Shown here: positions 8,775-64,000 of the stretch, one piece after another
Position numbering within the stretch: position 1 is the first letter of the stretch
Layout of the letters: each line of letters begins with the position of its first letter
Sequence record: OM362897.1
Source of the DNA: Escherichia phage SKA64
DNA length: 64,000 nt
Strand: one strand, 5' to 3'
The notes under the pieces: model-generated
The model's input: the letters and a program-made list of their open reading frames with translations, nothing else
Told to the model about the DNA's origin: nothing
The model's database searches: none
Made by a program: the position numbers and the translations under genes

Positions 8775-9245
8775 ATGAGAATTAAAGTAACTAAAGCTTA
8801 CGATGATAACCCGAAGTTTATCTCTTTGAATAAGAGTTATGGTGTCGAAAACGGCGATGAGTTCGAGGTTATCGATCTTTTTGAGGATCACGGGTATATT
8901 GTCAAAGCCCCAATCACAGAGCAGGCTATTATCATCTTACGTACAGAGGCTGTTGAGGTAGGTTCTGATGAACCTCAATATGAAAGCCCATACATGACAG
9001 AGTGGATTGTGGCTGTAGATGTTGGAGGCAGGGTTTCTGTATTGAAAGCTCCTAATCTCCATCCTAGTTTTACAGAGAACGGTTTGACAGCTTTGGATTA
9101 CGGGTTGCCAGAAGATGTTGAGAATACACCGCCAGGTATGTACCGTTGGATTTGCTCTTTCCATGAAGAGAAGGATTGGGAATCAGGGCTTGTAGATGAT
9201 TGGCATTTTGAAGTGGAGAGTTCTTTTTTAATCATGCCAGCTTAG
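8775..9245 (+). CDS. hypothetical protein
   Basis: 156-aa ORF with RBS GGAGG, tightly packed. Confidence 0.4.
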   Translation: MRIKVTKAYDDNPKFISLNKSYGVENGDEFEVIDLFEDHGYIVKAPITEQAIIILRTEAVEVGSDEPQYESPYMTEWIVAVDVGGRVSVLKAPNLHPSFTENGLTALDYGLPEDVENTPPGMYRWICSFHEEKDWESGLVDDWHFEVESSFLIMPA

Positions 9246-57861: not shown

Positions 57862-58267
57862 CCTCTTCTGTAGGATTAGACATTTTATGCTCTGCTGCCT
57901 CTTTCAAAGCTTCTTCATAACTTTCAAATCCAGAAATACAGGTGTCATCAGTCATTACAACATACCACTCTTCTTTTGTTGTATCAACAGGTTCTTCTTG
58001 TGGTTTTCCACGACCACCACGAACACCACCGTCAACAAAATAATCTATATGAGCAGAATTGATTATGTAACGATCCCCATCACCAGCAGTGATAATACCG
58101 TCTCTCATACCTATTACAACCATTGACAAGATATTACCATTTGCATCAGTGCTCAACACCTCGAAAAAATTCTCTCCAATGATAGCAGCAATACTGTTAT
58201 CAAAGGTAGAATATAATCGCATATAATCCTCATCCTGGAAACGGTAGACATGACCTTCTTTAAACAT
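57809..58267 (-). CDS. hypothetical protein
   Basis: 152-aa ORF. Confidence 0.35.
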   Translation of the reverse strand: MFKEGHVYRFQDEDYMRLYSTFDNSIAAIIGENFFEVLSTDANGNILSMVVIGMRDGIITAGDGDRYIINSAHIDYFVDGGVRGGRGKPQEEPVDTTKEEWYVVMTDDTCISGFESYEEALKEAAEHKMSNPTEEVEVYKRLVVATIGVSFV

Positions 58268-58721
58268 TGTTCTCTCCTCCTAACTCATCATACCATTTCA
58301 AAGCGTCTTTTGGAAGCATACCAAAATCTTCTTTTAGTTCTTTTTCAATCTCTTCTTGCATTTCCATCAGCGTTTTCAGTTGACGGACTTTTTTGTGCAT
58401 AGCCACATTCCTTTCATTAAGGTTTGTCACTACATTATTTGCACGACTCGGTGGAAATGACAAAGGTTTCACGGGAAGATAATCTTCGATATTATCTAGT
58501 GCGTTACGAAAATTATGATCCAAGAAACGCACATCTACACGATTGTAATCGGCAGCTACAACAGTGAACACTTTAAACGGCACATTGGATAAAGTATGTT
58601 GCACATAGACAGTACCCATATTGCCTTCAATTTTACTATTAACTTCCAGCAAACCTGTATGAGCACTAACATAATCGTGAACACATTGCACATAAGCTGC
58701 CAGTATAGTGAATTGTCTCAT
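58260..58721 (-). CDS. hypothetical protein
   Basis: 153-aa ORF. Confidence 0.35.
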   Translation of the reverse strand: MRQFTILAAYVQCVHDYVSAHTGLLEVNSKIEGNMGTVYVQHTLSNVPFKVFTVVAADYNRVDVRFLDHNFRNALDNIEDYLPVKPLSFPPSRANNVVTNLNERNVAMHKKVRQLKTLMEMQEEIEKELKEDFGMLPKDALKWYDELGGENNV

Positions 58722-58969
58722 TTTCTACCTCCCCATAATGCTAACATTTTATTGAAAATGGAAACGCGTCGTGCGCGAGATGCCATATCATAATTCATTC
58801 TTTCCGTCCCTGCAAGAAATTGATCTACTGTAATCAACGCTTTTGTCTTCTCTTTCAGAGTTTGCATATTCATCCATTCACATTCAGAGTACCAATTATC
58901 GAAATACAAACTATCAAGAAGATCCATTGCTGCTTCGTTCTGCTGTGGTGTGATCATTGCACACTACCT

Positions 58970-59200
58970 TTAATAGACAATGTTATATTCGTGAGGAAAG
59001 AAAACATAATCTTCCCCTTCTCGTGCATCTATCTCGTCCCAAAACCATTCCTGCACTTCCATCATCTTCGAGAATCGCACATGAGCAAGCCCACTGTATT
59101 CCACCGTAGCTTCCAGCACAAGTGGAAATTTTGCATGTGCCAATCCTTTATAACCACCATCATTCTCAATACGAATTTTCATGCGTTTCATATTATGCAT
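58970..59200 (-). CDS. hypothetical protein, paralog family B member
   Basis: MKIRI...VQEWFWDEIDAREGEDYVFF, paralogous to 55374-55595. Confidence 0.35.
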   Translation of the reverse strand: MHNMKRMKIRIENDGGYKGLAHAKFPLVLEATVEYSGLAHVRFSKMMEVQEWFWDEIDAREGEDYVFFPHEYNIVY

Positions 59201-59461
59201 CCTTCAAACCCTTAATAAAGTAACGACCAACCGGATTCCCTCGGAAGTATTCGTTAATGAAATCGATAACACACGTTTCACTGCCTGTCACAACGGACGG
59301 TGCGAAGTTTCGGAACTGCACGAGTACACGACTTGCGTTAGCAAGGGTGTGCACACGATCAGTGTTAGCTAAATACAAGGATACAGTTTTCATATTTGAC
59401 ATTTCAATCTCCTCATTGGCTATCTGTTATGCGCGGTATGCAAACCACTATACAGACATTT

Positions 59462-59830
59462 TTATTCAATGCAAGCATTATTTGCATCTTCAATTCTGTC
59501 TTTCACCCATTGAAGACGTAACGTGTTGGTATGACACGCCAAGTTTATACACTCTGAAAGGTAATCCATGCAATCTGCATTGAACGGAAGATTGTAGTCC
59601 AGCCCTGCACATGTAAATTGTTTCCTCATTTCATATTTCAAGCGGTCCAACAAACTATCCCGCCATCTTCTATCTTCTTCTCTAGTTGTCTCACCAACAA
59701 AATCATTTACATAATCTACCAGACAACCACATAAGCCACTCGTTGTGCGATTCATTGCAGGATAGTTGGCAATCCATGCTTTATAGAAGCGAAGCAATGT
59801 TGCACTGCTCAACGGAATACTATTTGTCAT
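59462..59830 (-). CDS. hypothetical protein, paralog family A member
   Basis: FYKAWIANY...SGLCGCL...AGLDYNLPFN...RLQWVKDRI. Confidence 0.4.
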   Translation of the reverse strand: MTNSIPLSSATLLRFYKAWIANYPAMNRTTSGLCGCLVDYVNDFVGETTREEDRRWRDSLLDRLKYEMRKQFTCAGLDYNLPFNADCMDYLSECINLACHTNTLRLQWVKDRIEDANNACIE

Positions 59831-60164
59831 TTTTCTCTCCTTCGTAATCTTGAATTCTATCTAGCACCCATTGTATACGATGTTTGTTTTTATGGCAAAT
59901 ATGTTTTTTATGTTCGAAGGTGTATTCTTCATAACCACCTTCATTAAACGGGAAATTGTAATCCAATCCTGCACCAATAAACTGTGATTTCATCTCCTGT
60001 TGTAGACGAGGTAACAGTTCATCAGGATATGTTCCCTCTACATACTTAATCAAACATATACACAAGCCACTCGTTGTGTGACCTTCTACCTCACCAGCAA
60101 GCCAAGCTTTGTAAAACTTCATTAGACGTAAACTACTCAACGGAACATTTTTACTCTCTTGCAT
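59820..60164 (-). CDS. hypothetical protein, paralog family A member
   Basis: FYKAWLAGE...SGLCICL...AGLDYNFPFN...RIQWVLDRI. Tandem with 59462-59830. Confidence 0.4.
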   Translation of the reverse strand: MQESKNVPLSSLRLMKFYKAWLAGEVEGHTTSGLCICLIKYVEGTYPDELLPRLQQEMKSQFIGAGLDYNFPFNEGGYEEYTFEHKKHICHKNKHRIQWVLDRIQDYEGEKNDK

Positions 60165-61727
60165 GATAATCTCCTCTCATCGTTAGCCATCTTTCATGGC
60201 AATCATCAATCACCAACATCATACGATCAATCTTAGGGAATTACAATCGAATTATCATAGGGGATTCCTATCAATTATCCCATATATACCGATTATTTTT
60301 GACACCCCACTCTTGTATAAAAAGTAACCCAAAATATCTACGGGGAGAGATTATTTCGGGACACCCTGTTTCATGGCAATCATGGCAAGAATATCTAATA
60401 GAATCAATATCATATGGCAAAAATCATGGCGCATACGTAAGAAGTGCTTAACGCGAATTTTCGGGCCGTCAGGTCCACGCAGCGACAATTCCCAAATATC
60501 ATGAGAATGAGAATAATTATCATTCGTATTCAATGACTTATGCAAGGCTTATGCCAACGTAGCGACAAGGTGGGCCACTTGATTATAAATCACACAAACA
60601 CTTATTTATCAATGGTTTGGCAACCTCATCATATGACGGAACAATGTCAACTGATCCCGCTCATGACAAGCAGACTATTATTTATATGAGAATGATTATT
60701 ATTTAAACGTTTATTAGCATAAAAACTAAAATAAATCAAGAATTTTCTGATTTTATTTACGTTTAAGAGAAGATGCTCAACATATCGCTACGCGATAGTA
60801 TTCGCCCCCGAAAGATTAGCCTTTATTTTCTTGTATGTTTATACGCTATGTGCACACTATGCAACCTGTCGCTATTCGCTCATGTTGCTACGTGCTAATA
60901 CTTCACCGTGCTAATGATCTTTGAGCGATAGCGATTATTTCATCTTGTAATTACCACAATGATTATTGTTATTGCGCTAATGTTATGATCTTGGTAATTA
61001 CATATAATGCTAATAATAAGCCAGCGCAATAAGTGTAAGCGTATTACGCTTGCAATTATTGCAAGCTACGCAGTAACAAGAAATAACCATCACCGATGGT
61101 TATGATTGTTGGGGTGTAGTTGGCTTATTATTAGCTCGCTATGTGTCCGGCATAGCGTGCTAATGATGACTCTGTGAATGATTCGTTTTGTAATGATTTC
61201 ATTTAGTCACTATTATGGCAATAGTTATTATTTTAATGGTTTCGTTTGTTATTGTTCGTTAGTTGGTTGTTTTGTCGTGTTATCGTTATCTTGCTTAGTA
61301 TTCATCATGGTTTGATTGTTTGTTGTTATCAATCATCTTGCTATTATTCCTTTGATTATGATTAGTTTGCTTATTGTTTTATGTTGTTTGTTGGTTAGTT
61401 GTTGCGAACTATTATCAACATTATAGTTATGCACTTATATTGCATAGATAAACATGGATAGATGATAATGGTTATCATTGCACTAGAAAGGAGGTAAAAG
61501 GGTGTTTTTGATGGTTTGTTGTTGGTTGTTGATCGATTTTAACCGCTTTAAATGGCTCTCTAACAGCCTGTTACCCTGGGAGGTATGGTTATTCATTTAA
61601 TGGTTGATTAGCTCGATACCGCGATCTATTCAGTTTTGTTCTGTGTCGGTTTTTCATAGGCGGAATCTATCAACATTATTCAGGCAAAAAGAAAGGGCGC
61701 TTAGTGCGCCCCTTGTTTTGTTGTCAA
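60165..61727. repeat. about 1.5-kb non-coding region with short repeats, palindromes and a GT-skewed tract
   Basis: No ORF of 60 aa or more except one doubtful 64-aa ORF. Repeats TTTCATGGCAATCAT (x2), GTGCTAATGAT (x2), GCGATAG-like motifs; palindromes at 61037-61064; GT-rich 61200-61440. Confidence 0.5.
61693..61714 (-). terminator. hairpin terminator candidate downstream of 61728-62147
   Basis: GGGCGC-TTAGT-GCGCCC flanked by A/T runs. Same sequence recurs at 62260-62276. Confidence 0.45.
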
Positions 61728-62147
61728 TTATAACGCTTCATAGATTGAGTAGATCCGGTTCGCCAGGTCATTACGAAAGCGGAATTTTTCATCACGTTTA
61801 ATCATCAGATCCTTAAAACCGCATTCTTTCAAGGCTTCATTAACTTTACTGCGGCATACTTTCATATTGTCCTGCGCGTCACCAATAAACTTATTGCTAT
61901 GATGCATTGCTTTGATCTCTTCCTCTAATACCAGGGCAACTACACGGACCGGATCAAGCTGATATGCGGTAACATCCATGCGGCATTGTAAACGGCTTTT
62001 AACATCGTTTACCGGATATACTGCAACCTCTTCCCCGTCAACGTTCACGATAACCAATTTACCATCGATTTCGAAGCCTTTGGCGGCGCTACCGTGACAA
62101 AAAGCGTTATCGAAGGAGTAAGCTGGATTATTTGATTTAATGTTCAT
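61728..62147 (-). CDS. hypothetical protein (GC-richer module)
   Basis: 139-aa ORF. Visibly higher G+C than the rest of the window. Confidence 0.4.
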   Translation of the reverse strand: MNIKSNNPAYSFDNAFCHGSAAKGFEIDGKLVIVNVDGEEVAVYPVNDVKSRLQCRMDVTAYQLDPVRVVALVLEEEIKAMHHSNKFIGDAQDNMKVCRSKVNEALKECGFKDLMIKRDEKFRFRNDLANRIYSIYEAL

Positions 62148-62257
62148 GATGTTGTCCTTTGTTTCGTTTCGTTGTTTGCTGCCAGTGAGTTAAATATAAT
62201 ATAACGCCGATCCCCTGTCAATAGGGGATAGCGCATTATTTACATTTCTTTACGTTA

Positions 62258-62279
62258 AAGGGCGCTTAGTGCGCCCCTT
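62258..62279 (-). terminator. hairpin terminator candidate downstream of 62288-62655
   Basis: Second copy of GGGCGC-TTAGT-GCGCCC, directly after the gene's stop. Confidence 0.45.
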
Positions 62280-62287
62280 GTATAATC

Positions 62288-62655
62288 TTACTTTGTGCGG
62301 TTGTGAACGTTATCGCGTTCAACCATCAAGGCAAGGCGGATCAGTTGATCAGTTGTATCGCGTAAATTGTCGGGCCATGTTTTACTGTTCCAGCTATCCA
62401 TGTTTGATTGTATATAGGTTTCAATGGCTTGATCCATATTATCAAACAAGTTTTCCTCCAGGCTCTCGGCTGTTTCACACTGGAAAGCATTAGCGACACT
62501 ATTAATCAATAAGCAAGCCAGTAAATCAGCATTACGCCAATTTTTACGGATAGTTTCATCTTCCAGATAAGCTACCAAATTAATATTTGCGCCAGTGGTT
62601 GACGTTGCGATCACTTCTTGCGCTTTTTCAACTGCTTTAATTGCCGATTTGCTCA
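62288..62655 (-). CDS. hypothetical protein (GC-richer module)
   Basis: Start chosen at ATG 62655 (MSKSAIKAV...) with upstream aagaggaaaag RBS-like. The track ORF extends to 62734 through the promoter-like region. Confidence 0.4.
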
Positions 62656-63538
62656 TCTTCTTTTCCTCTTTGTGGGCTTGCTGTATTGCTCGCCCTACGT
62701 GATAAATAATAATAGAAAGGTGATCCGGTGTCAATAGGTAGAATTGTAAAGATTCGATAGTTTATCTCTTTGATGTTTTGTTGTTTGATAGGTGTTAGCT
62801 ATCAATATATAGCGGGGTCGTCCGGTGATTACCTCCCCCGTTGCCAGTGCCGCCCGTTGAATAAGCATAACAAAAAACAGGACAAAAGCAAGCCCTGTTT
62901 TTGTAAAGATTAGATGATTTGCATATCCTCCACGATAATTTCTAATTTCCAAACAAGATGATCTAAGCTCCCTGATAAAAATGATTCCGATACATAACCG
63001 CCATCGGACACCGTAGCAAGGATCTCGCCATTTGCTTGCTCTTTGATTTGAACATCCAGGCGGTTAGCCTTTGCTTTGTTCAGGACGGCGATCAGGCGGT
63101 TAGCTGTAGTCATGGTGTTTTCCTTCCAGTTGTGAGCGGCACCATTGCCGCCCTACGTGATACATCTTACACTATCAGATACATTGTGCAAGCTATTTTA
63201 GATCTCGTCACCTATATAATCAGATCTGTTCTTCTCTGTCATACGTTTAAACAATTCTTGCATATGGCTGATAGCTTGCAATGTGTCTTCTTCCAGGCTT
63301 GAATCGAGATAATCAGGATCATTCTTTACCTTGCTATGGTTGTGATACCGCAACGCTGCTAATACCTTTCTAACTTGTTCTGCATTCATTTTTATTACTC
63401 CTTAAAACCAGGTGCCAACCGTTTCCAATAGGTCACTGACTACCAGAACAACATTGATTAGCACATATTTAATCAGGAAGGGGATAAGCGCCAGCGTCGC
63501 TACTATGATCCCCATTGTGATGATTACCTTTCTCATCG

Positions 63539-63823
63539 TTAGCGGTTTACGTAAGCTTTACCGTTTACGGTCATCGGTATGGCTTCAAGGTCTGGATCTT
63601 CCTTAAGGTCGCGTGCAAGCTCACCGCACCGGACACCCTCGAATCCGTGGTATTCTGTTTCCCCGTCCTTAAAAGTTTTAGCGGCAAGGCATAGGCGATA
63701 ATTAACACCGATCCGGTTTACTGCGTTGATATCGGTTAACGTGATCGATTCCGGCAAATCGTTAGCCATGACAGGCGCGTTAATACCAACAACCAGGGCA
63801 ACTACTGCGATCATCTTTTTCAT
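63539..63823 (-). CDS. hypothetical secreted protein with signal peptide
   Basis: MKKMIAVVALVVGINAPVMA N-terminus, 94 aa. Confidence 0.4.
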   Translation of the reverse strand: MKKMIAVVALVVGINAPVMANDLPESITLTDINAVNRIGVNYRLCLAAKTFKDGETEYHGFEGVRCGELARDLKEDPDLEAIPMTVNGKAYVNR

Positions 63824-64000
63824 GTGTCTATCCTCTTCCTATTGCGTTTAATGGGGCGTTATTGATTGATGTTATGATGAAAGTTATTTTCTTCAACGGC
63901 TTTTAAAATAAAGGCTGTTACCGCTTTCGTGTCTACTTGTTCGAACGTATCAGAATAAGCCCAATAATGATCATCCCCTACTTTCGGCGGGTAAACCTGG

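Follow-up and report, generated by a model that had tools for sequence, protein, structure and literature searches.

The gene-free interval at 60165–61727 of a 64,000-nt stretch of the Escherichia phage SKA64 genome (OM362897.1; the whole stretch is referred to as the window) is very probably the chromosome-end, or concatemer-junction, region of a phage with short direct terminal repeats. The window belongs to Phapecoctavirus (Stephanstirmvirinae), and the interval and its flanks were 96–97% identical to Escherichia phage phAPEC8 and to many other genomes of the genus. The gap sits between homologs of phAPEC8_0018 on the left and phAPEC8_0017 on the right, both on the minus strand, and carries no annotation in nearly all of 138 related records. 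The first-pass annotation had proposed a candidate origin or control region, and had also mentioned packaging or regulatory hubs and a check for genome termini; the packaging and terminus part was borne out by a 328-bp terminal repeat and by the ends of related records inside the interval, whereas the origin part was not supported.

Terminal repeat, cut-site modules and genome ends

When both ends of the records of Mt1B1_P17 and Schickermooser were aligned to the window, their start (AACGCGAATTTTC) fell at 60450 and their end (...AAGAGAAGATGCT) at 60777, with the same 328 bp present at both ends of both records. In the window, this direct terminal repeat (60450–60777) is found as a single collapsed copy. 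A terminal repeat of 328 bp was reported for Schickermooser (Korf et al., PMC6563267). In a search with the gap alone, a record start or stop at 60450 was found for Mt1B1_P17, BI-EHEC, Schickermooser (one base earlier), WPEC1, WPEC2 and WPEC4, the KKP 3954 record started 8 bases inside this position, and the 3A1_SA_NWU record ended at 60778; altogether, at least seven records started or stopped at or near 60450 and three at 60777/60778. Close relatives thus carry the same sequence at both virion ends, and the end positions are the same across isolates, which is the pattern of the fixed-end class with short direct terminal repeats. Because the virion DNA of these relatives runs from 60450 rightward around the whole genome to 60777, the segment 60450–60777 lies at both virion ends; therefore, the window derives from a record that was opened elsewhere and retains one collapsed copy of the repeat.

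The same arrangement was found in the sister genus Justusliebigvirus, where a 342-bp direct terminal repeat was determined for phage BME3 by PhageTerm (PMC12210895); the BME3 record begins at the homologous AACGCG and finishes at the homologous ...GTAGGCT, exactly 342 bp apart. Stephanstirmvirinae genomes were described as terminating in direct terminal repeats (PMC12695924), the related Vequintavirinae have repeats of 458–514 bp and T7-type packaging, and the relative KPP-1 was assigned to the T7 type by PhageTerm. The repeat itself was only 65% identical between lineages. The terminal repeat has already been published for the genus, and the core of our finding is therefore known biology that is rarely annotated. 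At the right end of the BME3 record (PP239276; 2727–4000 of the retrieved stretch), ~860 bp are repeated, made up of 82 bp followed by the terminal repeat and by DNA that extends as far as the loop of helix 6 of the fold described below; a second repeat copy with N bases follows, and the right-end feature is labelled ‘DTR-L’. This duplication has the look of an artefact of assembly or finishing.

Both borders of the repeat carry a similar cut-site module on the plus strand. The left module (60440–60467) reads AGAAG-TGCT^TAAC-GCGAA-TTTTCGGGCC, with the virion start at 60450 (60449 in one record), and the right module (60769–60809) reads GAAGA-TGCT^CAAC-AT followed by a variable hairpin (TATCGCTACGCGATA, 60783–60797) and TTCGCCCCC (60801–60809), with the virion end at 60777. 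The two modules share a bipartite signal in direct orientation, TGCT^YAAC followed by TTCG(G/C)CCC, and this pair of border motifs was found in all ten aligned Phapecoctavirus-like genomes at a distance of 329–332 bp and in BME3 at 342 bp. The sequence of the right-module hairpin varied between phages, and a hairpin was always present. This arrangement points to recognition of both borders by one nuclease, as the staggered-cut and repeat-duplication model of T7 requires. In DE16 and SF1-1, an extra copy of the right module (TGCTCAACAT, hairpin, TTCGCCCCC) was located 58–80 bp to the right of the repeat border (window ~60780–60870); this third module could provide alternative ends or could mark the way in which the adjacent hypervariable spacer evolves. 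We found no prior description of the border motif, and we know of no work on concatemer recognition or processing in this phage group.

On the minus strand, an open reading frame (ORF) at 1–2076, extending from the first base of the window, matched Terminase_6N, a terminase large subunit domain, and the gene for the packaging enzyme therefore lies ~58 kb from the ends that it cuts. Assignment of the packaging class from the type of terminase was rejected, since Terminase_6N is generic and does not discriminate between the classes.

A conserved strand-specific fold to the right of the repeat

Two adjacent perfect 15-bp palindromes, AAGCGTATTACGCTT at 61037–61051 and TTGCAATTATTGCAA at 61050–61064, had been singled out in the first-pass annotation, and both are exact at these coordinates. 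They do not stand as two separate binding sites for protein, but both belong to a single arm of a larger strand-specific fold of ~150 nt on the plus strand (61009–61157), which was obtained as an RNAalifold consensus of twelve sequences (ten Phapecoctavirus-like and two Justusliebigvirus). A 15-bp closing helix (helix 1, 61009–61023 with 61121–61135) encloses two long arms. Helix 2 (61026–61042 with 61046–61062) holds both palindromes, the first of which forms the tip of arm 1, while the second forms its 3′ side and pairs with 61026–61042 rather than with itself. Helix 4 (61065–61079 with 61106–61120) and helix 5 (61083–61091 with 61095–61103) follow, and a further hairpin, helix 6 (61137–61144 with 61150–61157), stands after the closing helix. 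At the centre of the second palindrome, two positions co-vary with 61030–61031, from U-A to C-G in Justusliebigvirus and from A-U to U-A in the phiWec lineage.

The consensus fold comprised 61 pairs with 98.5% of the cells paired, and compensatory changes on both sides were observed at nine pairs across five helices, which is the helix support expected of a structured RNA. None of 500 shuffles reached the observed covariation score, and shifting the partners by 1–3 columns reduced the pairing to 25–53%. All four pairs that varied on one side only were kept paired through G·U. The consensus energy was −76.4 kcal/mol on the plus strand versus −49.3 kcal/mol on the minus strand; the single-sequence z-scores against shuffles were −8.4 (plus) and −7.6 (minus) with RNA parameters and −9.8 and −8.2, respectively, with DNA parameters. 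A covariance model built from the alignment matched the plus strand in all nine Stephanstirmvirinae sources containing the region, at 148–214 bits, and found nothing comparable in the phages TH18 and Av-05, which carry long nested inverted repeats of their own at the equivalent place. The comparison of TH18 with Av-05 as a source of covariation was rejected, the two being too similar. No Rfam family (Rfam 15; both strands, two sensitivities) matched the element, no match with E ≤ 1 was obtained in 58000–64000, and the best score in 60950–61220 was 18 bits against a threshold of 55. We found no prior description of a covariation-supported plus-strand fold here.

The element would act either as a plus-strand transcript or as folded plus-strand DNA. 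It is conceivable, though the less probable case, that the element, perhaps together with the adjoining U/G-rich tract, is a gene for a trans-acting plus-strand non-coding RNA (ncRNA), antisense to all its neighbours and acting on the host or its defences, an explanation that can coexist with the terminal repeat. The strand specificity of the fold, its many G·U pairs and its compensatory changes agree with such a gene, as does a perfect TATAAT at 61003–61008 just upstream (TACAAT in the phiWec lineage); a TTGCAT-N18-TATTAT was read by eye ~40 nt upstream in BME3 and muut. However, these candidate promoters are weak and differ in position between the two genera, and a start 7 nt past the TATAAT would cut off part of helix 1. 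Nor does a terminator stand directly after helix 6; a plus-strand T-run stands after the hairpin at 61695–61711 in most Phapecoctavirus genomes, but the T-run at 61711 is absent in ZCKP1, SF1-1, BME3 and TH18. The lack of an Rfam family also speaks against the ncRNA gene. Related phages do express an intergenic small RNA, the pseudo-ToxI of phiTE (PMC3475682); as a lead this was rejected, since it lies at a different intergenic locus and ToxI-like tandem units are absent from the gap. About as probable as the ncRNA gene is a role of the fold in cis, as an RNA or as a signal in single-stranded DNA for end processing or priming; the remaining probability goes to other roles.

Leader, spacer, conserved islands and Fur-box-like sites

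To the left of the repeat, 60165–60449 is a unique non-coding stretch between the phAPEC8_0018 homolog and the repeat, and is presumed to be the promoter and leader of an early operon transcribed inward from the right end. Sigma-70-like promoter sites were not above chance (14 versus 10.9 expected from shuffled sequences). The leader holds exact copies of the 15-mer TTTCATGGCAATCAT at 60192–60206 and 60369–60383, for which ~0.001 such pairs are estimated to be expected by chance in 1.56 kb, a two-copy 24-bp tandem at 60230–60279, and two copies of GATTATTTnnGACACCC at about 60290–60308 and 60350–60367. A 12-mer, CGTGCTAATGAT, recurs farther right at 60907–60918 and 61156–61167. The first-pass annotation had correctly reported the two copies of the 15-mer and of the 12-mer, but its description of these repeats as iteron-like was not sustained: the repeat families in the gap are two-copy or loosely three-copy with irregular spacing of 76–800 bp, the 15-mer pair is not retained in the more distant genus members of the phiWec/PsgM04F lineage, and Tandem Repeats Finder returned only trivial arrays from the gap. 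Elsewhere, CACGTAGGGCGGCAATGGTGCCGC was found directly after strong sigma-70 early promoters at 63136–63156 of the window (minus strand), at 9166–9185 of L001 and at other sites; it is annotated as ‘PHIRE promoter’ in phAPEC8 and looks like a conserved leader hairpin. In FFH1, an unrelated T5-like phage, a near-identical CACGTAGGGCGGCAATG stands after a promoter of the pre-early region (~2781–2797 of the retrieved stretch).

These repeats bear directly on whether the gap is a replication origin, with the repeats as initiator iterons, the T/G-rich tract at 61176–61439 as an unwinding element and the folded plus strand as a priming signal, which appears unlikely. T7 has secondary origins beside its terminal repeats, the tract is ~71% A+T with a strong strand asymmetry that is kept across genera, and the strand-specific fold also forms with DNA parameters. 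Nevertheless, no array of three or more direct repeats of ~17–22 bp at regular spacing, as in iteron origins, was found in the gap, where the repeats occur as pairs and the 15-mer is not conserved. There was no consensus DnaA box in the gap, and one-mismatch boxes stood at chance level (7 versus 5.3 expected). The cumulative GC skew followed gene orientation and showed no genome-scale inflection at the gap, GATC clustering revealed nothing origin-like, and there is no recognisable initiator gene adjacent to the gap. The authors of the rV5 genome were likewise unable to place an origin by skew (PMC3606486). Since iteron arrays, DnaA boxes and a skew inflection are all missing, a classical origin is the weakest reading, and the origin part of the first-pass annotation is unsupported on the same three counts.

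Immediately to the right of the repeat lies a 217-bp hypervariable spacer (60778–60994), rich in indels and module swaps and holding the first CGTGCTAATGAT copy. The spacer was 53–58% identical to DE16 and ZCKP1, which are 96–98% identical to the window on both sides of it. From ~60995 to the terminator the sequence is near-invariant within the genus, and this stretch is a mosaic block with an edge near 60995. Against Justusliebigvirus only islands survive; neither the spacer (30%) nor the T/G-rich tract (39%) could be aligned. Island A (60995–61175) was 65% identical to Justusliebigvirus with long invariant runs, island B (around 61440–61480) is retained there, and island C (61585–61715) was 82% identical. 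A conserved sequence island in the region of island C, GATCGATTTTAACCGC...; TTAGCTCGATACCGCG, spans 61529–61691. Of the whole gap, only island C could be aligned with TH18, a Vequintavirinae phage in which a separate gene-free gap of 1.6 kb lies in the same context. Typical rV5-type genomes gave no alignment with the TH18 gap; the rV5 genome map has a box labelled ‘non-coding’ (PMC3606486). As RNA, islands B and C were rejected because of a weak consensus fold on both strands (−24 versus −20 kcal/mol), and they look like sequence-level signals. Scans of IMG/VR and of metagenomes for more distant homologs returned only 3–4 loci each, all from close relatives.

The C-poor, T/G-rich tract (61176–61439, read on the plus strand) contains 10% C and 52% T, compared with 19% C in the whole window; at the same place, Justusliebigvirus has a non-homologous tract with 6% C. 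We found no prior description of the hypervariable spacer or of a conserved C-poor tract. At 61692–61714, on the minus strand, stands the intrinsic terminator of the leftward operon comprising gene 0017 and those upstream of it; its T-run is invariant on the minus strand, whereas on the plus-strand side only some genomes have one. This terminator hairpin, AAAGGGCGCTTAGTGCGCCC, is found at both 61692–61714 and 62257–62279, after two consecutive small genes.

A resemblance to the Fur operator of E. coli was seen in the longest repeat family of the gap (ATGAGAATAATTATCATT and relatives). Scored as matches to the 19-bp consensus GATAATGATAATCATTATC (hexamer array), three Fur-box-like sites were found at homologous places in every genome examined from both genera, with 14–16 of the 19 positions matching in the window and as many as 17 in relatives, which is a close match to the consensus. 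Site 1 (60503–60527) lies 54–78 bp from the left end of the repeat and scores 16/19 (17/19 in the phiWec lineage), and site 2 (60688–60706) lies 71–89 bp from its right end and scores 14/19 here and 17/19 in BME3 and muut. Site 3 (GATAATGGTTATCATTGCA, 61464–61482; 15/19) falls in island B, is invariant in the genus and kept in Justusliebigvirus, and its core AATGGTTATCATT is also present in TH18. Six of the 11 sites with at least 14/19 in the 64-kb window are located in the 1.5-kb gap, including the best (16/19 at 60503–60521), and four copies of the core AATGnTTATCATT were counted in the window (1.1 expected), three of them in the gap. Our best guess from the similarity to the consensus is that a dimeric protein, either host Fur or a phage protein of the same specificity, would bind these sites. 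Neither a prior description of conserved Fur-box-like sites in these phages nor literature on anything similar was found. To our knowledge, the use of Fur by a lytic phage is undescribed, and binding of Fur would be such a use of the host iron sensor; it would tie packaging or early events to the iron state of the host. A tentative extension of these observations is that the fold represents a new family of phage structured nucleic acid, either an antisense-oriented ncRNA or a folded single-stranded DNA end-processing signal, and that host Fur is recruited to conserved sites placed symmetrically inside the repeat.

The interval 60165–61727 contains no convincing ORF, as the first-pass annotation had stated: the longest is 65 amino acids, and the best candidate is broken in relatives. 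That the gap consists of unrecognised small protein genes is highly improbable. Seven small plus-strand ORFs are annotated inside the gap in each of the PsgM04F and ETEC-TG records, and an ORF at 61502–61600 has a strong Shine-Dalgarno sequence, that is, a strong ribosome-binding site. However, an in-frame TAG interrupts this ORF in 6 of 10 relatives, its start codon is missing from the phiWec lineage, ten small ORFs of the gap had no match among the PHROG families, the gap ORFs are not retained in Justusliebigvirus, and nothing is annotated here in most records. The ORFs annotated in PsgM04F and ETEC-TG are probably gene-caller overcalls, because they are not conserved. A search of the gap for tRNA and tmRNA genes returned none; a minus-strand cluster of ten tRNA genes (Met ×2, Ile, Pro, Gln, Gly, Thr, Asn, Ser and Arg) is located at 3579–5501.

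The first-pass annotation had also seen the gap as dividing a paralog-rich block from a GC-richer module. This agrees with the flanking genes, those on the left being paralogs, and with a GC content that is somewhat higher to the right. The phAPEC8_0018 homolog (59820–60164, minus strand, 114 amino acids) is the first gene read inward from the right genome end and overlaps by 11 nt the gene at 59462–59830 (minus strand, 122 amino acids), a paralog that has the motifs YKAW, SGLC and GLDYN.PFN in common with it; the phAPEC8_0017 homolog occupies 61728–62147 (minus strand). Campylobacter phage B15 (MG065650), Pseudomonas phage PsgM04F (OR584014) and other phages, including Acinetobacter-named ones, were 78–96% identical over the gap, and the host labels on these records look doubtful.

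Proposed working of the end region and comparison with known systems

In a working model of the chromosome-end region, the terminase complex would recognise TGCT^YAAC ... TTCG(G/C)CCC at both repeat borders during packaging, and cutting at the borders would be accompanied by a duplication of the repeat of the kind known from T7-type packaging. The stretch 60165–60449 would serve the early operon read inward from the right end. The DNA to the right of the repeat would form a group of signals acting in cis just inside the left end, consisting of the hypervariable spacer, the 150-nt plus-strand fold, the C-poor tract, the third Fur-box-like palindrome, the conserved island and the terminator. Our best guess is that these signals would act in packaging recognition or start and/or in the priming of DNA synthesis at the left end. 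A palindrome-binding protein would place the machinery ~55–90 bp inside each cut, and the terminator would keep the neighbouring operon from reading into the end region.

Several points weigh against the chromosome-end reading and the roles assigned within it. The ends of SKA64 itself are predicted from relatives at 90–97% identity. Some GenBank records may copy the orientation of an earlier record, and the record count is not a count of independent measurements, because records may have been re-oriented; two independent published end determinations remain after this caveat. In older papers, rV5 and phiTE were termed circularly permuted. The 8-mer TGCTYAAC alone is not rare, with five occurrences in the window versus 4.8 expected, and the cut-site argument draws its weight not from how often the motif occurs but from its conservation and from its location at the two ends, which were defined independently. 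In the comparison with phiWec179, the flanking genes out to 63900 were as conserved (~96%) as 60995–61715, and near-invariance of this stretch within the genus was rejected as evidence of selection because the flanking genes are equally conserved. The covariation in the fold comes from about four lineages, and its 69 G·U cells against zero A·C cells were counted on a plus-strand prediction that admits G·U and not A·C by construction. No plus-strand RNA promoter was found to be conserved between the genera. The roles of all elements to the right of the repeat are inferences. The observations proper are where the repeat lies and how long it is in close relatives, the motif common to both borders, the strand specificity and conservation of the fold, and the conserved palindromes.

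About 140 public genomes of this group, which is used in phage therapy, are available, and most were deposited with an arbitrary start and with these 1.5 kb left unannotated. Locating the repeat and the true ends there fixes their orientation and annotation, and the end region is DNA to be kept intact in engineering or in-vitro rebooting. The border motif, the strand-specific fold and the Fur-box-like sites provide handles on concatemer recognition and processing in a large myovirus whose ends are of the T7 style.

Functionally, the nearest analogue is the end region of T7, which likewise has a short direct repeat at fixed ends in gene-free DNA (160 bp in T7 versus 328 bp here), conserved non-coding signals beside the repeat and early genes that are read inward from one end. 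In contrast to T7, these phages are 150-kb myoviruses that use the host RNA polymerase, and there is no sequence similarity between the two. Beside its terminal repeat T7 has heptamer arrays and phage-polymerase promoters, whereas a multi-helix fold and Fur-box-like palindromes are found here.

In appearance, the region is closest to the untranslated part of T5's left terminal repeat (‘injection stop signal’), which measures 1.2–1.7 kb, contains nested inverted repeats and palindromes and is better conserved than nearby genes (Davison, bioRxiv 10.1101/866236). Both are gene-free regions that straddle a repeat border and carry conserved nested inverted repeats. However, T5 has a 10-kb repeat with genes and paired DnaA boxes, as opposed to a gene-free repeat of 328 bp and no DnaA boxes here; no A1/A2 genes adjoin the gap, and these phages are not known to transfer their DNA in two steps. 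Within the TH18 gap, an 85-nt non-coding segment (2433–2516 of the retrieved stretch, homologous to window ~61535–61620) was 76% identical to the T5-type Repeat Region 1, its counterpart in the T5-like FFH1 being located in the left terminal repeat at 5114–5195 of the record (2501–2582 of the retrieved stretch). From this similarity, a cis element appears to be shared between the phage families.

The cos site of lambda (cosN and cosB with a host IHF site) also places a cut site beside a multi-part recognition region just inside the end, and in both cases the site of a host DNA-bending protein may be part of the signal, here the Fur-box-like sites; lambda differs in its 12-nt cohesive ends and in having no duplicated repeat. 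The complementary-strand origins of G4 and M13 and the single-strand origins (sso) of plasmids resemble the fold in their ~150-nt length, their several hairpins and their confinement to one strand, but those origins act on naturally single-stranded intermediates and share no sequence motif with it. Finally, the packaging RNA (pRNA) of phi29 offers a conceptual parallel only, as a structured element of ~120–170 nt encoded near a genome end; there is no match to an Rfam pRNA here, and phi29 has protein-primed ends and no terminase small subunit.

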